Shown: piece by piece, positions 1 through 38,034 of the stretch
Layout: each line of letters opens with the position of its first letter
How positions within the stretch are numbered: the stretch's first letter is position 1
Source: a virus
Taxonomy: Duplodnaviria > Heunggongvirae > Uroviricota > Caudoviricetes
IMG/VR virus record: IMGVR_UViG_2563366949_000011
Length of the DNA stretch: 38,235 bases
Direction: 5' to 3' (one strand)
Position numbers and translations under genes: made by a program
The notes under the pieces: model-generated
The model's input: only the letters and a program-made list of their open reading frames with translations
Databases searched by the model: none
Told to the model about the DNA's origin: nothing

Positions 1-56
1 AGTCTTGAGTCTTGAGTCTTGAGTCTTGAGTCTTGAGTCTTGAGTCTTGAGTCTTA
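1..56 (-). repeat. Heptanucleotide tandem repeat (AGTCTTG on + strand, AAGACTC on the coding strand); at least 7 complete copies plus a variant copy, array continues past the left window edge
   Basis: Directly visible: positions 1-49 are seven perfect AGTCTTG units, 50-56 is AGTCTTA. The array sits immediately after the ATG at 60..58 (minus strand). Confidence 0.95.
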
Positions 57-60
57 ACAT
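1..60 (-). CDS. neuO: 5' end of a neuO-like phase-variable polysialic acid O-acetyltransferase gene, truncated by the window edge
   Basis: Minus-strand translation from ATG 60..58 reads MLRLKTQDSRLKTQDS..., the RLKTQDS heptad-encoded N-terminus I recall for NeuO of prophage CUS-3. Putative RBS AGGA 7 nt upstream. Only about 20 codons are visible. Confidence 0.6.
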   Translation of the reverse strand, partial: MLRLKTQDSRLKTQDSRLKT

Positions 61-213
61 ATTAGTATCCTACGTTATTTTACCACTAGTTACTTTTCTT
101 GTCATTAAAAAGCATTTAAATTTTTATATTTAATTTCGTTGACGTCAATGTTTTTTGCCAATGTACTTACTTCTTTATGTGATCAGTTCATATTTTTGAC
201 GCCAACGAAACAT

Positions 214-3159
214 TTAGTGCTTCCCTTCTATTAAGTCTAACCTAGCTTTTATTCTTTCTATTTCTCTGCGCTGCCATGCTGCCTCGATATAGAATAAGAG
301 ATCAGGTCTGACCCCCCATCTAGATCCTGCTGGCGTTATTTCAACGCGCTCAATGATGTCTTCCATTACCATCACTGGATTATCATCCTCATCAACAATG
401 ATGCTCCCGTCATTATCAGTCAGCGGCATTTCCCTTTGGCCAGTAATGACGTCATCATATACTGCGGGATAATCGTCATAGCAAAGAAAGGCATAGCGGC
501 ATGTTGTGCTTTCTTCTTCCATGAGTCCGTGAGAAATAAGAACATCACGAAGTTGCTGCGCGATTACACCATGATGTATCCTCGCCCCTTCTTCCCCCTT
601 TATAGCGACAGCGTTCAGCCATTTATAAGCGATATACCTGACGTCACCCCAGGCATCCAGCAATGTTTCGTCAGGAGAGACCGGCTCTGTCTTTAATGTT
701 CCGTCACTGGTAACCACAGGATTGGAGCCAAGATAAACTATCGAGAACCTGTTTCCCGGACCACCAAGAGCATTTACATTATCAAGATAAGGTTTAACAT
801 CTCCGTTCTCAAAAAGATGTTCGAGTGCGTTATATACCGCGCGACGTGGAGTACTGCTTCTGGAACCATGCAACGTTATCATTGCACCATCTGCTGAAGA
901 CGTTGTTTCACCGCCGCTAACGATTAATCTCTGAGCGGTAACATCATCAGACGGTACTTTCTTCGCAATAATGGCGTAATTACCCTCAAGTTTGACTTCC
1001 GCGCGAACTTGTCCTGATGTACCTGCATGGACAGTCAGTGACTGGACGGCAACATCATCTGTGAAATCAACGGGTACAGGAACCGTCCTCACGCCTGACG
1101 TCGACATAAAAGTAGGAAGCGTTCTGTTAGGAGTGGCTCCGTAGACAAAATCCCTTGAAACAAATTCTTCCTGTTTAATTTTCACCCTGAAACAATACAA
1201 ATCAGCCGGGTGACCATCGTGAACATAAGGATATTTTCTGTTGTTATCCCCTATGCTCCATGGGTTTAGAAAGTCTTCCCCACCGAAAATGTAGTACAGC
1301 CAGTTGTCTTTGATACAAACTGAACCAACACCAACCGCAGAGTTAACTATTCCGCCCTGATAAATCTGATCAGTAACATTAACCCACTCTACATTATCCA
1401 GACTCCACTCATTGACGTTAACTCTGGTCATAAATGTTCTTGGATAGTTTCCTGCATAACGGTTATCAGGTTCTCCTCCTTCCCACTCACCAAATGCGCG
1501 CTCACTGCCAAAAATAATCAGCTCATCGCCAACTTTGGCAAAAGGAAGGTTTGAGTGATGAACATTATTTGGGAAGCGAAGAGAATTCCATGATGTACCT
1601 AAATCAGAGCTTCTGTGCAATGAACTACCGGGTTGAGTACTTAATGTCCCCCTGGTCGTCAGATACAGAATGCCATCATAATATTTTACACATGGCTCAG
1701 ATGCATTCGCCTCATATTCTGCAGGTATGCGTCTGCGAACAAAGCTACCAGGAGAACCGAAAGCATCAGAGAAATAGAGTATCCCAAGCTCGCGTGGACC
1801 AATATCACCATTATGGTAGCCAACAGCAAAACTGTTATCGCTAATCGTCGCAAAACTGTGAATCTCAGTAACAGGAGTGCTTCCGTCAACAAAAGAAGGA
1901 ATAGTTCCAAGACTGGTTTTTCTCCATGGTGACGAGTGAAATGATGTACCAAAACTCCAGTATCTACCCTCGTTATTCTGATCCACATCCTGGGTATTTT
2001 GCGTCGTAACTGTAAAAGTATTTTTATCAATAACAGTAGTCACCGTCATATTCCCGGTAACACCTGTAACACCAGAGTTTGAGAAGTTGACAAAATCACC
2101 AGCAAATAATCCGTGATCAGTAATGCGAATATAAGCGACTTGCTGATTTGCTGCTTTCGTTATACCACCATAAACGCGAAGGCTGCGACTCATTGGGCGA
2201 TCCCACAACTCTGCAACCTGCAGTTTATTTCCGCTCACGGTCCGCGTCTCAATTACAGCAAAAAGGCGATTTCTGACAACCCCCATACTCATGCAGTGAT
2301 AGTTAACTGTGGGATAGTTTTCATGTAAATCTGTAAGCCATTCCGGCGTTGTCCAGGTCTTCCCGTCATCTCCTGAGCGAACCCATGCAACATGGAGGTT
2401 ATTTACACCATGGCGGTCTCCAGCCATAAAAGGCGCATAGATGACATTGTCATATACAAACGTTTTATCCTGCGTCCAGGCGTTGTACCACGGTGTATCT
2501 GTAATTTTAAATAACTCTCCCTGGATAAAATCTTCAGAAACATAAAAAAGAGGCTGACCCGGTATTCTCTCAAATAAAAAACGAGCATTTTTAAATCGAC
2601 TGACATCTGGAAGAGTTGATACTTTAAAAGTAAGCCCTCGCCCATCTATCTTTTCACCACCTGTTGCAACAGAAAGTAATTCTGATAGAGCTGATGTATC
2701 ATCATGAACACCATCACCAATAGCCCCCCAACCTCTTACATCATAACTGTCTCTCCATCTTGCTATCTGAAGTTTTGGGTATTTATTCGCTCCATCTGTG
2801 TCTTCTAATTGCTGCCGTAACTGATCAGGATCATACTTCAGCACATTAGGAAAATAGAACTGCTGCGCACCATACGCATCATAAACAGCCATAGAATGGC
2901 CTTGCACGGTAACGAATTTGGCAATCTGTCCGTTATATACCGGATATCCAGCAGCGTTAATGATTATTGGTTGCGAAACAGGAACGTGAGAACCGTCTTC
3001 ATTCTCCACATAGACCTGAATCTGGTTTTCAGGATTTACCGGGTCAGTGTCAATTTTACCGATATAAATTTTGCCATTGGCTACGGCTTTAAAAGAACGC
3101 GCCATAGTGAAGAGTTGCGAAGGCATCGATACAATCACATTGGCTGTAATGTCTGTCAT
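214..3159 (-). CDS. Tailspike: P22-type head-binding N-terminal domain fused to an endosialidase (endo-N-acetylneuraminidase) body and a C-terminal intramolecular chaperone domain
   Basis: 981 aa ORF with ATG and GGAG RBS. N-terminus [17 protein letters not shown]...[14 protein letters not shown] resembles the P22 gp9 head-binding domain. Asp-box motifs SGDDGKTW and SSDLGTSW are typical of sialidase beta-propellers. C-terminal TSDGTLKT (Ser...Lys) and acidic tail resemble the self-cleaving chaperone domain of K1F/CUS-3 endosialidases. Confidence 0.9.
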
Positions 3160-3215
3160 TTAATTTGCTCCAGATGCAAAGAATCGCCGCAGCATGGCCA
3201 CGGTGAATTTTGGGC

Positions 3216-3240
3216 ATAAAAAAACCCAGCCGAAGCTGGG
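3216..3240 (-). terminator. Rho-independent terminator after ant, before the tailspike gene
   Basis: Hairpin CCCAGC-CGAA-GCTGGG at 3225-3240 preceded on the + strand by an A-run at 3216-3224, which is a U-run on the minus-strand transcript. Confidence 0.5.
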
Positions 3241-3259
3241 TCGTTGCGTTGGTTATCTG

Positions 3260-4162
3260 TCAGTAATTATGTACTGAAGGAGGTAATTCTTTATTCTTAA
3301 GTCTCATCCATGCGGAAAGATTCGTTGGTCCGTCTGGCTCATTGATATCAACATCTCGTGTGTGATTGATTAAAACGTCTCTCGCCATATCGATAATACG
3401 GGAGAACTCATAACCGCAGTCATGACATCTGCCGGAATAGTTCGATTGAATTTGTTTTAGCGCCGGATACAGTTCGCGGAATAATGCCTGTGAGCGGTTG
3501 GCATAATCCCATAGCCATACAAGGCTGTTTGCTTCTTTTGCAGAAAGCTCGTTGGTTTTCTTCTCTTGTTTGCCGATGAACTCACCTTCAAGCACTACCC
3601 TGTGGATGTACTCTACTGCTTGTGGTATCTGAGATGCATCAAGCTCTTCAATACTTTCCACATTGAAACGCTGATGAATCATTGCATAAGCTTCTGGGTA
3701 CATTAGATGCTTTTTGCTGACTAGCATATTTACAGCATCACGAAGCGGAGTCCTGTCATCAACAGATGTTTTCTTCCGTGCATTTGCTGCCTCTCCCTTT
3801 GTCCAGTAGTCATGCAGCACAGTAAAGCATTCTTCCTGGTACTGAATCAGTTTATCGCGGATGTCAGCACGAACTTTCTCAGGGTTGATGCTGAACAGCC
3901 ATCCATTTAACTTCTTCAAAGGAAGGCAGAGTAGCTTACGAAGCTTACCATCAGCGGCAACCATGTTCATATGAACACAGTTGAATTTGCTAATCTGCTT
4001 CATGAGTTTTGTTTGCTGCGTTGACCAGCTCATTCCGAGGTTTTCAACGATTGGCTTCATCGCAACATATGCAACTCCGGCAGCCATGGCGGTGATAATT
4101 TGCTGACCGTTGAATGGCACGTAAGAGGTGTTCACTGCTTCTAAAATTGCTATACTATTCAT
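3260..4162 (-). CDS. ant: Antirepressor Ant (P22 immI type)
   Basis: Protein from the ATG at 4162 ([21 protein letters not shown]...) is 300 aa and matches my recollection of P22 Ant. The ORF-track start at 4228 is a GTG without RBS; the ATG at 4162 has GGAGAA upstream. Sits in the arc-ant-tailspike arrangement. Confidence 0.75.
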
Positions 4163-4394
4163 GTTGGTTTTTCTCCACGGATTTACCGACAACCGAAGCC
4201 CTGACTGTTCCAGCAGTTGGGGCTTCACTGTTTTGATTTCTTTGCCGCATCAAGCATCACTTCTGAAAACGTGCGCTTGCCACTGAATACTCTTTCTCTT
4301 CTCAATTTTTCGTTCGTGCCAAATGATTCGCCATGAACAAAATTTGGTCTTAAAATGGTAATCGCAATCTCTTTGACTACTGCATCCAAGCGAA

Positions 4395-4547
4395 TCACAC
4401 CGTTACCCCCTCTCTCTTCAGGCTGTCTATCAGGCGCTTGATAACCTCTGAGTTAAACGACCTGCACTCTTCCTTTGCCCTGCTACCGATAGCATCCTTT
4501 AACGACTGCGGCATCCTTACCAAAATCTTACTTATTTCTTTCTCCAT
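4395..4547 (-). CDS. arc: Arc-like ribbon-helix-helix repressor
   Basis: 50 aa from ATG 4547 with GGAGGG RBS: MEKEISKILVRMPQSLKDAIGSRAKEECRSFNSEVIKRLIDSL. The RSxNSE motif is typical of Arc/MetJ RHH proteins. Located upstream of ant, divergent from mnt. Confidence 0.65.
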   Translation of the reverse strand: MEKEISKILVRMPQSLKDAIGSRAKEECRSFNSEVIKRLIDSLKREGVTV

Positions 4548-4661
4548 GTTACCCTCCACGCAAACAACTCTTTTCGAATACAAAAGATAGCAAAGTGAGT
4601 ATATCTAGTCAAAATTTTTTTGCATACACTTTGCTATCAAATTGAATACCAAAGGTGTTAT
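4548..4661. promoter_or_regulatory. Divergent arc-ant / mnt promoter-operator region with a 12-bp inverted repeat pair
   Basis: GATAGCAAAGTG at 4586-4597 and its exact reverse complement CACTTTGCTATC at 4627-4638 lie in the AT-rich spacer between divergent RHH repressor genes. Confidence 0.45.
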
Positions 4662-4910
4662 ATGGCAAAGGGTGTGTCAATTTCTCCAACTACGGTAAGA
4701 ATCCCTGAATCTTTACGCGAGGCTCTTGCTGTCAGAGCATCAAAAAATGGTCGCTCTGTTAACTCCGAGATCGTCATGATTTTGCAAGCCGCGATTGATG
4801 AAGATAGGTCGCCAAAGTCAGTTGAGTCATTTGCTCAGCAAGAAGCTGATAAATTCAAAGAGGCGCTACTTGAGACGCTAAAGACCATGTATGCTAAGGA
4901 TGAAAAATAA
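4662..4910 (+). CDS. mnt: Mnt-like ribbon-helix-helix repressor
   Basis: 82 aa from ATG 4662: MAKGVSISPTTVRIPESLREALAVRASKNGRSVNSEI...KFKEALLETLKTMYAKDEK. The RHH motif and coiled-coil C-terminus resemble P22 Mnt. Divergent from arc. Confidence 0.7.
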   Translation: MAKGVSISPTTVRIPESLREALAVRASKNGRSVNSEIVMILQAAIDEDRSPKSVESFAQQEADKFKEALLETLKTMYAKDEK

Positions 4911-5446
4911 TGCTGCACACAATTCATTTCTTATGCCCTGTTAACACTGCCACTGTTGGGCAACTTCAGAACCACTGTCTCACCGCATTATCTCAAGGCG
5001 CAACTGAATTAAATATCCATATATCAAGTCAGGGAGGGGAAACTGCTGCTGGCTTTACTGCGTATAACTTTCTTAAGTCACTCCCTGTTACCGTTAGAAC
5101 TCACAACATAAGCAATGTTGAATCCATAGCTAATATCGTTTTCCTGGCTGGCTCAGAACGTTTCGCAAACCCATTATCAAGATTCCTGTTACATCCTCTA
5201 TTATGGTGCTTTGCCTCCCCAGCCGCCGACCATGCCAGATTGAGAGAGTACGGGAAATGCCTCGATAACGATCTTGATCGCTTCGTTGAGACGTTCAATA
5301 TCGACATCGGAACCCATATTAGGTGGGCATCCCTGATAGCAGACTCGACCATTTTGGATGCTAACAAGGCTCTTGAGCATGGCATAATTAATTCCATAAA
5401 AACTGCAAGGCTGGCATCCAATCAGGCAAACTGGTGGGTTGTTTGA
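4910..5446 (+). CDS. ClpP-like serine peptidase (Clp/crotonase fold), translationally coupled to mnt
   Basis: 178 aa; start ATG overlaps the mnt stop (TAATG). Motifs IHISSQGGETAAGFTAYNFLKS, a Ser in NVESIANIVFLAGS and a His in FLLHP align by eye with the ClpP pattern (INSPGG...AASMG...MIHQP). Confidence 0.55.
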   Translation: MLHTIHFLCPVNTATVGQLQNHCLTALSQGATELNIHISSQGGETAAGFTAYNFLKSLPVTVRTHNISNVESIANIVFLAGSERFANPLSRFLLHPLLWCFASPAADHARLREYGKCLDNDLDRFVETFNIDIGTHIRWASLIADSTILDANKALEHGIINSIKTARLASNQANWWVV

Positions 5447-5469
5447 TGGGTAAATCATGATTACTCCTT

Positions 5470-5494
5470 ATAAAAAACCCACCTGACGGTGGGT
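5470..5494 (-). terminator. Rho-independent terminator at the convergence point (mainly minus-strand sense)
   Basis: Hairpin ACCCACC-TGAC-GGTGGGT at 5477-5494 with an A-run at 5471-5476 on the + strand (U-run for the minus transcript). It abuts the stop codon of the YafO-like gene. Confidence 0.5.
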
Positions 5495-5944
5495 TTAGTC
5501 AAACATAGTGTTTCTAAAGTCTCTCGCATACCCTGCTAACACTCTCATTCTATTATGATTGTTAGCAGACATGTGAGCTACAGGATGAAAAAGAGCAATC
5601 AATGAATACCTGTTCTCATCAAAAAGATTTTGTGCATAAACGAGAGCGGTATTGGATGTTTTATGCCACTGCAACTTTTGCGGTGTGCTGATATCTGTGC
5701 CATTTTTTATTGGCTCAAATTTATTTTCACCAATTGCTAAATGAAGGTGCATAAGGCCTGCATCTTCAATATCAGGAGGTCGATGATAAGAGGTGTCTCT
5801 GCCAAAATAGCTGGGCAACGTTCCCGTAGACTTGTAGATGATAAAATCATCTACAAGTGTTTGTTTTAAATCAGGAAACTCAACAAAAACCGGGGAGAAA
5901 AAATAGTCAAAACTATCCTGATTATATTCCACGGTTACTTGCAT
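5495..5944 (-). CDS. YafO-like toxin domain protein (putative ribosome-dependent mRNA interferase family)
   Basis: 149 aa, ATG with GAGGT RBS. Segments DDFIIYKSTGTLPSYFGRD, LMHLHLA, ALVYAQNLFDE, LIALFHPVAH and NNHNRM align by eye with E. coli YafO (DFISYKRDGVLPDIFGRD, HIHLA, LVYCQGAFDE, NNQMH), recalled from memory. Confidence 0.55.
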   Translation of the reverse strand: MQVTVEYNQDSFDYFFSPVFVEFPDLKQTLVDDFIIYKSTGTLPSYFGRDTSYHRPPDIEDAGLMHLHLAIGENKFEPIKNGTDISTPQKLQWHKTSNTALVYAQNLFDENRYSLIALFHPVAHMSANNHNRMRVLAGYARDFRNTMFD

Positions 5945-5952
5945 GTTTTACC

Positions 5953-6519
5953 TCAGTGGAAGTTACCAGAGTGAAACACACGAGTCCCGTGCTCAGCAAG
6001 CGCACGCAAACCAGCCATATCTACGGAACTATCAAAAACAACCGGAACACATGAGCGTTGTTTAATAAGACTATTCAGGTTGGTTACGGCAGATCTGGCA
6101 TCAGCAACAACGATATAGATATCTCTTGCGATCTCTTTAAAATCAGCAGAAGCTTCTTTGAATACCGATTTCATTGCCCCTTCAAGTCCTCTCAATTGAT
6201 GCTCTATCAATCGAGACTTTTCTGGTTCAATGATAGACAACACATTGTCTACATTCTCATCGGTAGCGTTTGCAAGAACACGATAAGCGTATTTCAGCAT
6301 TCGAGACAATTCTTTAATCGAAGACACCGCCTCATGAAGCTCATCATTAGCCCGTTCACTGCTGAATGAGGATTGATGGTAAGCGTGCTGAACGTTATCA
6401 GTAACAACCACCTCACAACTGAACGCAGAAGCTTGCTGTAATAGCAAACCTATTGCGACTCCAGCTTTGGCAGCGTTCAAGCTAAACATTTCATCAATCC
6501 CATTAGTCTCATTGCTCAT
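5953..6519 (-). CDS. Hypothetical protein (188 aa), immediately upstream of and co-oriented with the YafO-like gene
   Basis: ATG at 6519 preceded by AAGGAGG. Stop lies 8 nt before the YafO-like start. No family recognised by eye. Region is AT-rich relative to the structural genes. Confidence 0.55.
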   Translation of the reverse strand: MSNETNGIDEMFSLNAAKAGVAIGLLLQQASAFSCEVVVTDNVQHAYHQSSFSSERANDELHEAVSSIKELSRMLKYAYRVLANATDENVDNVLSIIEPEKSRLIEHQLRGLEGAMKSVFKEASADFKEIARDIYIVVADARSAVTNLNSLIKQRSCVPVVFDSSVDMAGLRALAEHGTRVFHSGNFH

Positions 6520-6694
6520 ACAAACCTCCTTCTTATCGGAGATTATCAATAGCTATGCATCCATTGAATACACGCTATGCGCAATAAGTTTACGTCACGT
6601 GATATCATTATGCAACCACCGTTCTATCACCGACTAACTTTACTCCCACTCCTATACATCATCTGGTATCCTGCGCAAAACTAAGGAGGTTGGT

Positions 6695-7045
6695 GTGAAT
6701 GCTCAGTCTGTCATCATGGTTTTCCTTGGGCTGATTGTCGCAAAACTATATCCAGACTGGTGGAAAGGGGCATTAGCTACTGTCGCCATCTATTTGCTTT
6801 TATCCATCGTTAAGCGATCACTCGCTGAGACCGTAAATCAAGCAAAACGTTTCTCATTTAAGAGTTTAATAAACTATGTTACTGGGCTTATTTTTTGCCT
6901 TTCAATTCTGATCGCTTCGGCTTTTTTGCCCGTATCAATAGCTAATTTTTTTGGCGCACCATATGAGGTAGGTTATCTATTCTCTGTTTCCTGTCTTGCC
7001 ATTGCTCTTCTTTACCTGTGGACGAGATCAAAGAATAAAAATTAG
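6695..7045 (+). CDS. Small integral membrane protein (116 aa, about three hydrophobic helices), position equivalent to P22 sieA
   Basis: GTG start with AAGGAGG 5 nt upstream. Hydrophobic segments VIMVFLGLIVA, ALATVAIYLLLSIV and LIFCLSILIASAFLPV. Plus strand, convergent with the ejection-protein operon. Confidence 0.5.
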   Translation: MNAQSVIMVFLGLIVAKLYPDWWKGALATVAIYLLLSIVKRSLAETVNQAKRFSFKSLINYVTGLIFCLSILIASAFLPVSIANFFGAPYEVGYLFSVSCLAIALLYLWTRSKNKN

Positions 7046-7062
7046 CCATCCGTGGCTGCCAG

Positions 7063-9078
7063 TTATTGAGCTTCTTTTTGTGATGCCTGTGCGACTCTGG
7101 TTAGCGATTGTGTGACCGTACTGATCGCTATGTCATATGCTGTGCTACCTTTTGGCGTATTTGCCAGACGTAACAAGGCATTTCGTATAACAGGGCTTTC
7201 GTATGCCTTCGCAGCTCCTCCTACGACACCAGCAGCAGGAACAACAAACGCAGCCGTTTTTAGCATCCCCGCTAATACTGCTGCGTTTATGATGCCACCA
7301 CCAACTAACAATCCATAAAGCTGCTGACCATTTAAGTTTTGAACGTTCGCTTTTGCCGCGTGTCTTGTATCGTTGAGGTATTTAATAACGCCGTCCAGTT
7401 CCTTTCCATGTACGCCTTTAAAGAAAGTTGCTGATTGCTTCCTGTTCCGGTGTAACGCATTAATAAACTTTTCAACACTAATATTTCCAGACGGATCAGT
7501 CGCCTTATCTACAGCATTCTGAACTATGGCTGCTCGTGCGTTTTGCCTACCATTGTCATCCAGAAGCCTGTAAAGCTGAGAACGTTCTGATGGGTTTTGG
7601 CTAAAAACGAGTTTTGTTACATCCTCAGGTGTAGCCTTGCCGCTGGCTATTGCCTTTTGAACGCGCGTTCTTCCCATCATGTCATTGAATCTAGCCCATG
7701 AGCGATCAACCCTAGACATATTGGCAGCTTCTTCTGAGCCTAGTTTTTGGGATACTGCTTTTTTCATATCCGCTGTATATGCCTTGTAGACAATATCGCT
7801 GGCTTTCTGGAGCGTGTCTTTATCAACAGTCTCGTTTGAATTCATGAACCGCTTTCGAAGGTCAGTTCTGTTTTCTCTCGCCAGACGCAGGTCATTGGGT
7901 CCGCTGGTGATATCGTCTTTAAATTGCTGCAAGACTTTTACCGCGGCTCTATCCTGAGATTTGCCCGGGCGGCTTAACACGGCAATCTGATTGTCGATAG
8001 CTTTTACCGTGTTTGAGAGATCGACAGGGGTATCCCCCATAGCGTCAATTATGCGGTTATATCGCTTTCCTGCTGCCTCAATGAATTTTTGTTGCCCTTT
8101 AGTCGCAGATTCATAAAGCTGTTTATCAGAAATGCCACCCAGACCATCGCTAAATGTTCTGACTAAATTTTCTCGTGCTTGTTGTTGATTCAGCCGATTC
8201 TTACCGGTTCCAAAAAAAGGAACTCTTTCGCCTAATGTCTGAGCCTGACTCTGCATAAAGGTTTTATCTTTCAGCGTGTCACTGGTCATTAACGGCAGGT
8301 TTCTTTCCGACGCAAAATCGACAGCAGCCTTTGCTTCCGGTGACATCTCACCGCGAACAGCCCTGGAAACCGCACTAACTGTATTTTCCAGCCCCTTGCC
8401 AACACCACCAATGCCAGCAGAAATTACCGTTTGTGCAGGATCAATATCTTCTCCGCCAGCAAGGCTGGTGCCACCCTGTAGTGCTAAATCTGTAGCAGCT
8501 GATTTCCCTATGGCACCAAGCACCGTTCCAGCCCTGCCCGCTGGTGTGAACGCTAACGCATTAGCAAGAAACGAAGTCAGGTCTTGCGGTGATAAACCTG
8601 GCTTGTTCAGGGCATAATCACCGGATGGCAGGGAAACGATAGTGTTACCCTTCTCATCCTGCCTTAATTTCGCCCCCATACTCTGAAGAATCTTTTCCTG
8701 AGACGCGTCGGAGCCGAAAAGTTGAGACCATCCAGCCTTCAGGGCATCCATGCTTAGTGAGTTCAACTCAGGGGCAGCCCCAACATTTTGCAGTCTCTCC
8801 ATTTCTGGTGTCATTCGGCTTTCACCGGTAACGGCATCGCGCATTGCAGCACCTAAAACAGCCCCTTGCTCAGCAGAGCGATCTAGTCCTTCCTTCTGCT
8901 GAGTGGCAAGCTGTGCATATCCTGATGCAAGTGAGTTGTCTGCTGGCGATTGCTGAACACCTTGTTGTGTTGGCGCTGACTGACCAGCAAAATACTCATC
9001 AATGGCGGACCCAATATCTTCCGTGCTCGTACCATCAGGAAAGGTAAATGTCTTACCATTTGCAGTTACTTTCATCAT
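7063..9078 (-). CDS. Ejection (injection) protein, P22 gp16-like
   Basis: 671 aa ORF at the position and orientation of P22 gene 16, last gene of the head/ejection operon. Confidence 0.75.
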
Positions 9079-10526
9079 TCCACCGTAAATTGAATGCCTG
9101 ATTTTGACGTGTAGCTACCTCCTGCTGATTGCTGAGTAGCTGGCTGTTGCCTTGATGATTTCTTCCCGCCATTACCAACATTAACGTTATATTGCTGGTT
9201 GTAATTGTCGGTATATTGCTGAATGTCGCGCATTGATTGTTGCAGCGCTTCAGGACTTGAGAAATCAGGCTTTGGCATACCCTGAAAATACCTATTGGCC
9301 TCTGCTTCGGTGTTGATGCCAGATGCCCCCATATCTCGGGCTGCTGCAATCCCCTGATTTTGCATTTTGCCCATGATTCGCTGTGCAGCGTTGTATAGCC
9401 TCCTCTCCTCAACACCAGATGCCCTGCTACGAATATCTGCACCAAGAGCAAAAGAACCTGAAGAACCTGTAATACCTGTCATGAAGCCAAGATCGTCAAT
9501 TGATGCGCCAGAAATTGCATCAAGATCTTTCTTCATTTCGTAATTCTGTGCATTAGCTGCCGATGTAGCCGGAGCAGCAATAGAACTGGCGGGGACGCGA
9601 ATCATATTGCCCTCGTTGTCTATTCCTTCGTAGAACGCATTAGCACCAGCGCCGTGAAGCTTCCTACCAACCGTTACCGTTCTGCCATCTGCCAGTTGCA
9701 CAACATTCTCCCCGCCAGCATCAGGACGACCTCGAACACGAAGATATGTCTTTTGTTGCTCTGGAGACAGGCTGTTGAAATATTGATATTCTTTAACAGA
9801 TGCAGGAACAGCACCTCCAGCAGTGCGCAGGGAGTTTTCACGGCTAACAGCAATGCTTTGCGCCTTTAAACCTTCCCCAGCTTTATTGCTGCGAATCGTC
9901 TCTGCCAACTTGCCACGCTCAATATCCCGACCTTCCATTTGATCTTTGATATCGAAATACTTCTCATGACCGAGAGAAAATAGTGCCAGATTACCTGCGA
10001 AGTGCTGGAAGCCCTGCGGGTCATTAACCTGCATTTCCGCAATAGTTTCTGGAGGGATACCTAAACGACGCATATCCTTTTCGTTATCCATCATGAACCT
10101 GCCAAATGCACCCGGACCAAGCGACGAAGCGACCTGAGCCTTAAGCGCCAGATTGCCAAAATCATCCCGCTGGGCGTCATCGACATACCCCATGCCTTTA
10201 CGGACTTCCTCAAACTCTTCGGGGAATGCTGTAATAAGATTACGCATCTGCTCCCTGTCGCCGGACGCATAAGCATCCGCATAACCTTTCTGGAATGCCG
10301 CTTTACGCTCCTGCTTTTGCTGCTGCTTATAAATATCAGCAACTCCAGCCAGACCACGAAGACCTGTCAGAGCAACGTTATTTGCACCTGATCGAGCCAG
10401 TTCATTGTTTTCGCGGATCAGACCAAGCGTTGCGTTAATGTCGCTTGCCTTTGGCGCATTCTCATTTTGCGTACCGATGCCAGCCAGAAACCCACCAGAA
10501 TTAATACCCTGTTGCCACGTAGCCAT
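9075..10526 (-). CDS. Ejection protein, P22 gp20-like
   Basis: 483 aa ORF, start overlaps the upstream stop; position and size as P22 gene 20. Confidence 0.75.
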
Positions 10527-21041: not shown

Positions 21042-21144
21042 TGTTGGCTCCGTTTATCCGTTAAAAGGGATATCAGTTAAGTTATCCCGTGTAGGGTATA
21101 AGCCATTATCAAAGCCACTCTGTAGGGAATGGCTTTTGTAATAA

Positions 21145-21483
21145 CTACTGTTCGCTTAGCTTCTGCTTCAGCAAGTAACCTTCGAGCATCCAGATTTTGT
21201 TTACAGCATTTTGCCGGGCAATCTTCCGACCAATTTCTGCATCAAAGTTTTCCGGGCTTGCACAGGCGCTCTCTCCGGTGACGGTGAAGCCATTTTGTAG
21301 AGTCAATACACAAAATGTCAGCAGAGCCAAACTGTCGTGATAGTCATCGCCAGTTGCAATAGCTCCATCAGCAGCAGTGAAGTACGTTTCCGCAAGAATA
21401 ATGCTTTCGATATGGTCTGGCGTAACGCGCGGGGCGGTTTTGCCTTTCTCAACGATTTCTTTTTCGATTTGCTGGTCGTTCAT
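21145..21483 (-). CDS. Hypothetical phage protein
   Basis: 112 aa ATG-initiated ORF between the moron and the terminase module; no family assigned with confidence. Confidence 0.5.
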   Translation of the reverse strand: MNDQQIEKEIVEKGKTAPRVTPDHIESIILAETYFTAADGAIATGDDYHDSLALLTFCVLTLQNGFTVTGESACASPENFDAEIGRKIARQNAVNKIWMLEGYLLKQKLSEQ

Positions 21484-21661
21484 AATTATGACCCTGTAGA
21501 GTAGTTGCTTGATTAGGATGTCTTTCCATCAGTCCGCCACCACAAAGAATCTTTTTTGCCATAAGGCAGGAGGTTCATCTTTCAGTGGCTGCCAGTGTTA
21601 TTTCCCCACTTTCTGGCTTGGGTTGTTTCGCTGTACTGCCGTTAATTGATGAGTCCGGGGA

Positions 21662-22147
21662 TTATTTCAGTTCGTTACCAGGCATTTCTTTTAGCTCTTT
21701 CAAATGACAACGATTGAGACTAAACCACTCCCCGTGCGACCTATAGTTGTAATATTTTTGGTGCAATTTGGTTTCAAGCTCTCTATCGGCCGGAATCTTT
21801 GCAATTAGATTTAGCTTCCCACCACTCATGCGAGATATCTCTGAAATTCGTTTATTAACCCTGCGACTAAACCCTATTTTTGTTAGCCCACTATCTTCAG
21901 CATGCAGAACGTACACATATGATTTTTGCGAAGCACTGGGTGCGACTTTGTTGTAATTAATCATGTCAAACATGAAGCCTTGCTTTAGCAAAGTTTCAAA
22001 AAAGATAGAATTAACACACCCATTCCTTCTCAGCTCTGCACTTAGCTTGTCAATTTCCTCTATGATGTCGCCAGACCCCTTTCCACTTATAAGAAAATCT
22101 TGGTACATGCGACCAATTCTTGAGGTAATTTCAACAAAGTTGTTCAT
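21662..22147 (-). CDS. T5orf172 (GIY-YIG-like) domain protein, moron between the lysis cassette and the terminase module
   Basis: 161 aa; C-terminal half YVYVLHAEDSGLTKIGFSRRVNKRISEI...LHQKYYNYRSHGEWFSL fits the T5orf172 signature (VYIL...KIG.T...EWF). Region is visibly AT-rich. Confidence 0.6.
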   Translation of the reverse strand: MNNFVEITSRIGRMYQDFLISGKGSGDIIEEIDKLSAELRRNGCVNSIFFETLLKQGFMFDMINYNKVAPSASQKSYVYVLHAEDSGLTKIGFSRRVNKRISEISRMSGGKLNLIAKIPADRELETKLHQKYYNYRSHGEWFSLNRCHLKELKEMPGNELK

Positions 22148-27502: not shown

Positions 27503-27719
27503 GGGATGAACTCCAGTTTGCGATGTTAAATTCCCATTTAATTACCTTTGCATACCCAATTTTGAACCCATCAATACCTATCCACCGATTGCCACTCCAA
27601 TAAGCTGTACCACTTTGCTTGAAATGATGTGGATGCCTAGATTGAGTGGTCACAGTTACAGGTAAATATGGCTTCGGGTATTCCCCATTCCCTGGATAAC
27701 CAGATTTAATTTTGCTCAT
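27483..27719 (-). CDS. Hypothetical protein upstream of ninB
   Basis: 78 aa; ATG overlaps the stop of the upstream ORF (ATGA). Confidence 0.5.
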   Translation of the reverse strand: MSKIKSGYPGNGEYPKPYLPVTVTTQSRHPHHFKQSGTAYWSGNRWIGIDGFKIGYAKVIKWEFNIANWSSSHEETNV

Positions 27720-27907
27720 TGATACCCTCTCTCACTTAATCGCGCCCACGCTTCGTTAAACTCTTCTCGGGTTGCGCCGGATTTTCTTTCTTCAAACATC
27801 ATGCATTCGCTGATGTCTCCCCATGACTTTGGTCGCTTTTCAGCGAACAGATCATCCCATTCGAATACCCAGCGTCCTGATTTTCGGTATGGTAAATGGT
27901 CAGCCAT
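27716..27907 (-). CDS. Hypothetical small protein
   Basis: 63 aa ATG-initiated ORF (MADHLPYRKSGRWVFEWDDLF...); overlaps the 3' 109 nt of ORF 27799..28041 in another frame, so one of the two is probably wrong or the locus is frameshifted. Confidence 0.4.
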   Translation of the reverse strand: MADHLPYRKSGRWVFEWDDLFAEKRPKSWGDISECMMFEERKSGATREEFNEAWARLSERGYQ

Positions 27908-28041
27908 GTTGTGCTGTTCGCTGGATACCCATAGAGAACTTCGACTTTTTGATCACGGTCTTTATGCTTTTTCAGCAGGATAAAGCCAGCAACCAGCGAA
28001 GCTCCGGCAAGAATGATGATTGGAATTTGCCAGTCAGCCAC
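27799..28041 (-). CDS. Hypothetical small membrane protein (GTG start), possibly part of a frameshifted gene
   Basis: 80 aa with hydrophobic segment IPIIILAGASLVAGFILL. Its start lies inside a 27-codon ATG ORF (28034..28117) that begins ATGA-overlapped with the helicase stop; a GGGGG run sits at the frame junction. Confidence 0.3.
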   Translation of the reverse strand: MADWQIPIIILAGASLVAGFILLKKHKDRDQKVEVLYGYPANSTTWLTIYHTENQDAGYSNGMICSLKSDQSHGETSANA

Positions 28042-28113
28042 ACTTCCCTCTCCCCCAAATAAAAAGGCCTGCGATTACCAGCAGGCCTGTTACAAGCTCA
28101 GTGATGTAGATGG

Positions 28114-33891: not shown

Positions 33892-33957
33892 ATATGCATA
33901 CCAATAACGCTTCACTCGAGGCGTTTTCGTTATGCAATCAAACAGAAGGAGCATCCT

Positions 33958-34128
33958 ATGCAACAGTTCGCTATTGCAGGGGCGGCATCGGTTCGCCCTT
34001 TCAACCCGATTTTATCGGTACAGCATTCACGAAAAAACATTTTAACCGGAGCAGACTTTAAACAACCAAGAATGAAAAGCTTGCTCGAAAAGCTTTGGGA
34101 TATTTTGAAACAACAAGGCCGTCCATGA
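33958..34128 (+). CDS. Small hypothetical early protein
   Basis: 56 aa from ATG 33958 with AGGAG RBS; the ORF-track 5' extension crosses a terminator and is rejected. Confidence 0.45.
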   Translation: MQQFAIAGAASVRPFNPILSVQHSRKNILTGADFKQPRMKSLLEKLWDILKQQGRP

Positions 34129-37990: not shown

Positions 37991-38034
37991 TTGCCTGATT
38001 TGCAGGTTCGATTCCCTATTCGGAGATAGCACTC

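Follow-up and report, generated by a model that had tools for sequence, protein, structure and literature searches.

Organization of the locus

The window, by which we mean the whole 38,235-nt stretch of viral DNA analysed here, opens at its left end with a short tandem repeat that belongs to a gene on the minus strand (Table 1). Read on that strand, the sequence runs AGGA-tactaat-ATG-TT-(AAGACTC)x7-AAGACT and then reaches the window end; the unit appearing as AGTCTTG on the plus strand is AAGACTC on the minus strand. Tandem Repeats Finder reported positions 1-55 as a period-7 array of 7.9 copies with 100% matches and a score of 110, outscoring every other tandem array in the 38-kb window. A two-unit probe, the 14-mer AAGACTCAAGACTC, gave six matches, all on the minus strand between 7 and 55, with 0.00 expected from 100 shuffles. 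A preliminary description of this DNA had counted seven perfect AGTCTTG units plus a variant copy. The perfect repeat is borne out by both analyses, whereas the variant copy is not: the supposed variant, AGTCTTA (50-56, plus strand), is a register artefact in which the T of ATGTT is read in a shifted frame. In the AAGACTC register, which is the published one, all copies are perfect, with seven full units and six of the seven bases of an eighth.

The remaining features ascribed to the array were recovered as described. It starts 2 nt past the ATG at 60 on the minus strand (ATG 60-58, TT 57-56, array from 55), and translation from this ATG gives MLRLKTQDSRLKTQDSRLKT, confirming that the repeat encodes RLKTQDS heptads. 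The last unit, AAGACT (6-1), is incomplete at position 1, so the array does run off the window edge, and since it is cut after 7.9 copies, neither the copy number nor the ON/OFF state of the allele can be read from the window, as had been pointed out.

The gene was also said to lie just downstream of a tailspike gene, and the same-strand ORF immediately upstream of it (214-3159, minus strand) indeed carries all Pfam domains of an endosialidase tailspike, namely Head_binding, End_N_terminal, End_beta_propel, End_beta_barrel, End_tail_spike and Peptidase_S74. The tailspike gene of some related prophages is interrupted: O18 and MS20654 have IS3-family elements in it, and phiv205-1 has annotated transposase genes. 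Such prophages may be defective and yet have kept neuO.

Directly after the tailspike stop codon, and forming part of the tailspike 3' flank, lies an inverted repeat that as RNA folds into a 16-bp stem (z = -3.4). It is conserved in CUS-3, in phiv205-1 and in the neuO-less phage vB_EcoP-720R6. The promoter-proximal arm (134-148, neuO strand) contains the palindrome TTGACGTCAA together with a second promoter-like -35. The structure may be a stem in the late transcript, a terminator or a binding site, all putative roles. A scan of positions 61-213 found no intrinsic terminator between the tailspike gene and neuO, only this long-loop inverted repeat.

Table 1. Features located in the window, with the evidence on which each was placed
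Feature	Position	Strand	Basis and remarks
neuO poly-psi VNTR	1..55	minus	AAGACTC x7 (55-7) + AAGACT (6-1), cut at the window edge; encodes (RLKTQDS)n
neuO start ATG (60-58) and the TT (57-56) preceding the array	56..60	minus	sequence; identical in CUS-3
neuO-specific 5' leader, missing from vB_EcoP-720R6	61..99	minus	alignment and junction search
Shine-Dalgarno-like AGGA, 7 nt upstream of the ATG	68..71	minus	read from sequence; function inferred
best sigma-70 promoter-like site, ATGACA-17 nt-TG-TAAAAT, 10/12 matches	77..105	minus	consensus scan; predicted
15-nt inverted repeat TTTCGTTGACGTCAA / TTGACGCCAACGAAA, arms 134-148 and 196-210, 47 nt apart	134..210	minus	repeat search
siaK1 endosialidase tailspike gene, 981 aa	214..3159	minus	ORF list, Pfam; 99.2% identical to CUS-3 siaK1
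P22-type antirepressor	3260-4228		first mosaic block
two Arc/Mnt-like ribbon-helix-helix genes			first mosaic block (3593-10322)
Clp-protease-like ORF	4910-5446		first mosaic block
YafO-family toxin	5495-5944		first mosaic block
two ORFs without Pfam match	5953-6549, 7063-9078		first mosaic block
P22 injectosome translocase	9075-10526		first mosaic block
CUS-3 attR core TTGCAGGTTCGATTCC, argW-derived 16-mer, the prophage's far end	38000..38015	plus	exact match; blastn to the last base of CP000711.1
torI-like ORF, 66 aa	38035-38235		ORF 19 nt downstream of the attR core

The surrounding prophage

Compared with phage records by megablast, window positions 1-4000 matched, with 99.2% identity, Enterobacteria phage CUS-3 (CP000711.1) of E. 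coli RS218. By blastn, colinearity between the window and CUS-3 begins within the array, at CUS-3 position 2313, and extends to the final base of the record, barring four blocks that found no counterpart in CUS-3 of RS218 at the megablast level (3593-10322, 21121-22138, 27504-28085 and 33892-34124). The first of these is the immI/ejection-protein region, whose genes are listed in Table 1. On sequence grounds the prophage is thus a mosaic variant of CUS-3. None of the complete E. coli genomes searched held an exact match to it, the best reaching 96% coverage and 98.4% identity for query positions 56-24000.

On the right, the window ends with the stop codon of the torI-like ORF, which suggests trimming at a gene boundary. 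The attR core lies upstream of this ORF, so that torI is not part of CUS-3 as the CP000711.1 annotation delimits it by the core. In UTI89 (L034, 41041-41363), a near-copy of the argW 3' end, TGCAGGGACACCA, is found 74 nt after torI and before dsdC; this near-copy suggests an older or second att junction. The gene order in UTI89 is yfdC, argW, intS, neuO, tailspike, ... torI, dsdC. A tRNA scan detected no tRNA genes in the window, and argW lies beyond its left end, as in UTI89. In CUS-3, neuO has the endosialidase tailspike gene on one side and the integrase/argW end of the prophage on the other. What the window contains is a CUS-3-type prophage of K1 E. coli, minus the end carrying int and the body of neuO.

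The neuO cassette and its leader

The CUS-3-like phage vB_EcoP-720R6 (ON470605.1) carries the same endosialidase tailspike and is devoid of neuO, which allowed the boundary of the gene to be compared by alignment and junction search over positions 1300-1661 of ON470605.1 (L037) and 1340-2572 of L001. The sequence of vB_EcoP-720R6 runs colinear with the window as far as position 100 (...TTTTT[A/G]ATGACA) and then continues with the CUS-3 sequence that follows the neuO stop codon, CAATATTAATATAAGG... With colinearity ending at 100, the cassette that holds neuO has its upstream edge at window 99/100. In CUS-3 the cassette is a sharply bounded segment of 850 nt, including an array of 133 nt, that sits between the tailspike 3' flank and the sequence following neuO.

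The best promoter-like site near the gene straddles this junction, the predicted -35 ATGACA (105-100) belonging to the phage backbone and the TG-extended -10 TAAAAT (82-77) to the cassette. An alternative candidate is a TTGACG/AAAAAT site, from which transcripts would begin near window 113. It is a tentative and rather doubtful idea that the insertion made a hybrid promoter on which the lysogen would rely to express neuO, with the 16-bp stem just upstream possibly shielding this expression from late transcription.

Copy number and reading frame in related loci

Loci with the same leader were collected from IMG/VR by pattern scan (16 loci) and from RefSeq complete E. coli genomes (16), in addition to CUS-3 and phiv205-1. 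Arrays were taken as complete when bounded by ATGT[T/C] and GTTTTCCGTTGATGA, which left 27 loci, 11 from phage or IMG/VR records and 16 from the RefSeq genomes. Their copy numbers were 5, 8, 8, 9, 9, 10, 11, 11, 12, 13, 15, 18, 18, 18, 19, 20, 20, 21, 26, 26, 30, 30, 32, 34, 34, 36 and 39, and the array length was a multiple of 7 in every one. At a broader scale, the segment comprising the leader and the tailspike was found in 194 of 5426 complete E. coli genomes, and was chromosomal in each case.

Beyond the array, all 27 complete loci continue into the same 216-codon acetyltransferase body; the preliminary description had named the lack of any ORF past the repeat as the finding that would speak against it. 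Where the copy number was divisible by three (n = 9, 9, 12, 15, 18, 18, 18, 21, 30, 30, 36 and 39), the ORF from the ATG was full length in 12/12 loci, coding for 237-307 aa with the C-terminus ...KRCSSYHAKLTQ. Where it was not, the ORF stopped after 28-94 aa (15/15). The proposal that only multiples of three keep the gene in frame accordingly holds in 27/27 loci, a full-length ORF being present exactly when the copy number is divisible by three, as a property of the related loci and not of the window's own allele.

These data bear on where the repeat exerts its effect. Many contingency loci in other bacteria have their repeats in promoters, and the array could in principle work on transcription, by setting promoter spacing or as a protein-binding array, instead of on the reading frame. 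ChIP-seq has indeed shown DsdC to bind inside the coding sequence of neuO and a little downstream of it (PMC9659370). However, the array lies downstream of AGGA-N7-ATG and inside the ORF, the integrity of that ORF tracks copy number modulo 3 in 27/27 loci, and the array is translated, the heptads being present in the crystallised protein construct. We therefore give a transcriptional role in place of the frame effect next to no credence. DsdC does exert transcriptional control (PMC9659370).

Three arrays (L005, L032 and L033) contained a few variant units (AAGCCTC, AAGTCTC, AAGAATC, AATAATC, AAGAGTC, AAGTCTA and AAGACTA). Within otherwise perfect arrays, such units could be tract-stabilising interruptions or long-read sequencing errors.

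The repeat at the window edge

No frame of the heptamer contains a stop codon, so a gene caller would not end a gene there; in all likelihood the left end of the window is thus where a contig ends. Of the 16 IMG/VR loci, seven likewise end inside the array, with 18-94 nt of repeat. Most probably a short-read assembler was unable to span the array, and the presence of exactly 55 nt of repeat at the window start would plausibly reflect an assembly break at k=55. Since the sequence ends here, the 7.9 copies give a lower bound and are no phase call.

The same pattern, exactly 55 nt of pure repeat at the very end of the sequence, resembles what a de Bruijn assembler would be expected to leave at an unresolved repeat, and it could be taken to mean that the tract is a collapsed or chimeric repeat absent from the genome as read. 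The same array occupies the same place in finished genomes, both long-read and Sanger-era, and in the CUS-3 reference, so that only the copy number in the window is artefactual, as a lower bound, and the repeat itself is real; an artefact of assembly is scarcely conceivable as the source of the tract. A slightly better, though still very slim, chance attaches to the array being the dead remnant of a neuO gene truncated or lost past the window edge by deletion, IS insertion or rearrangement. The window ends within the array with the gene body out of view, and IS elements disrupt neighbouring genes in some CUS-3 prophages (the tailspike in phiv205-1, O18 and MS20654). Against this, the body is intact in 27/27 loci that share the leader and have a complete array, and the seven of 16 IMG/VR loci ending in the array point to a general limit of assembly, not to a lesion specific to this strain.

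Identity of the gene

At window positions 1-260, from the tailspike 3' end through the 153-nt intergenic leader and the ATG into the repeat, identity with CP000711.1 is 100%. The annotation of that record, beside siaK1, reads 'neuO: poly(psi) domain; contains 19 copies of heptanucleotide repeat AAGACTC'. We consider it virtually certain that window 1-213 represents the 5' end of neuO, the gene for the K1 capsule O-acetyltransferase and a phase-variable cargo of CUS-3, a P22-like prophage. The mechanism put forward at the outset, that of neuO in CUS-3, is supported by this identity, the locus being neuO of a CUS-3-type prophage. To judge from the related loci, what would lie past the left edge is the array's 3' end, the acetyltransferase body and the integrase.

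The observation is confirmed, and the feature is an already known one, described in 2005 and annotated in the reference record. For the neuO poly-psi VNTR, PMC3046976 cites Deszo et al. 2005 PNAS and King et al. 2007 J Bacteriol. All defining features of the neuO locus open to testing in the window or its relatives are present, and the locus is the known one, not a new member or variant.

The NeuO protein

The full-length product of the related ON loci matches Pfam Hexapep, and its residues 17-258 are essentially the same as PDB 3JQY, 'Polysialic acid O-acetyltransferase' (E = 1.3e-160). Ranking second is the meningococcal polysialic acid O-acetyltransferase 2WLC (E = 5e-31), the OatWY enzyme of serogroups W-135/Y and NeuO's nearest structural homologue (PMC3046976). 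O-acetylation of K1 polysialic acid has been established for the identical protein (PDB 3JQY; PMC3046976, PMC13001214), and the catalytic efficiency of NeuO rises in a linear manner with heptad count, even though the heptad domain is disordered in the crystal (PMC3046976). Enzyme activity and its increase with heptad number are taken here from the literature.

The ON alleles in RefSeq are annotated as full-length acyltransferase genes. In the OFF genomes (nine RefSeq loci), PGAP calls only a C-terminal 'acyltransferase' fragment of 111 aa, WP_011478229.1, and sets no pseudogene flag. The phase-variable neuO is misrepresented in most records, and because the OFF annotation shows only the 111-aa fragment, the ON/OFF state must come from the repeat count in long-read or PCR data.

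Instability of the array and phase variation

Between strains, the array varies eight-fold in the 27 related loci, from 5 to 39 copies, with flanks that are otherwise identical; this length polymorphism, like the frame rule and the identity with CUS-3 neuO, comes from the present comparison. A close pair is formed by ATCC 11775 (CP033092.2), which has 30 copies and is ON, and JCM 20135 (AP043894.1), which has 26 copies and is OFF. The 150 nt upstream and the 1000 nt downstream of the array are identical in the two, their genome lengths are 99 bp apart, they share the same tailspike protein accession, and an ISEc12 transposase is listed under the prophage match in both. The two appear to be of one lineage. 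JCM 20135 is labelled 'feces from diphtheria convalescent', which we take to be the classical K-12 provenance, yet it carries a CUS-3 prophage and its assembly matches the ATCC 11775 type strain; there may be a strain-labelling issue.

For MS7163, our count of 21 copies equals the published one (PMC13001214), and fragment analysis of a single culture of this strain resolved subpopulations with 20, 21 and 22 copies (PMC13001214). Among 64 complete genomes, 3-53 repeats were reported, with 65.6% OFF (PMC13001214). The unit has been described as 5'-AAGACTC-3' in 2-93 copies, starting 2 nt after the start codon, with one RLKTQDS heptad per three units and full-length, active NeuO only at multiples of three; strand slippage usually gains or loses one unit (PMC3046976). 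PMC13001214 agrees with this account on the unit, on where it starts, on the heptad and on the multiple-of-three rule. The slippage rates and the heterogeneity within a culture are likewise literature values.

Put together, slipped-strand mispairing during replication would add or remove whole 7-nt units. When n is a multiple of three, the ATG would be in frame with the left-handed beta-helix acetyltransferase body, with the array translated as RLKTQDS heptads, and the in-frame neuO would allow the capsule to be O-acetylated (ON). Any other copy number would shift the frame and end translation shortly past the array (OFF). Phase-variable O-acetylation of the K1 capsule alters antigenicity, resistance to phages specific for K1 and to neutrophils, and serum sensitivity, effects that concern E. 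coli causing meningitis and urosepsis (PMC13001214, PMC9659370).

Comparison with known systems

The closest system is neuO of CUS-3 itself, which shares the AAGACTC unit, its start 2 nt after the ATG, the RLKTQDS heptads and, base for base, the 153-nt leader. In both, the siaK1 endosialidase tailspike gene lies directly upstream of the array, and the prophages are colinear up to the attR core. The differences are of context only: the window prophage is, by its sequence, a mosaic variant of CUS-3, and its array is cut by the window edge.

Haemophilus influenzae lic1, with (CAAT)n, and Neisseria opa, with (CTCTT)n, are likewise intragenic simple-sequence contingency loci, in which a repeat in the 5' part of the ORF has a unit that is not a multiple of three and slippage toggles the frame. 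The neuO gene differs from these in its 7-nt unit and its carriage by a temperate phage, and also in that the translated repeat of the ON allele tunes catalytic efficiency (PMC3046976). OatWY (2WLC) is a homologous left-handed beta-helix enzyme, but it lacks both the N-terminal heptad domain and the AAGACTC array, and it is not borne by a prophage (PMC3046976).
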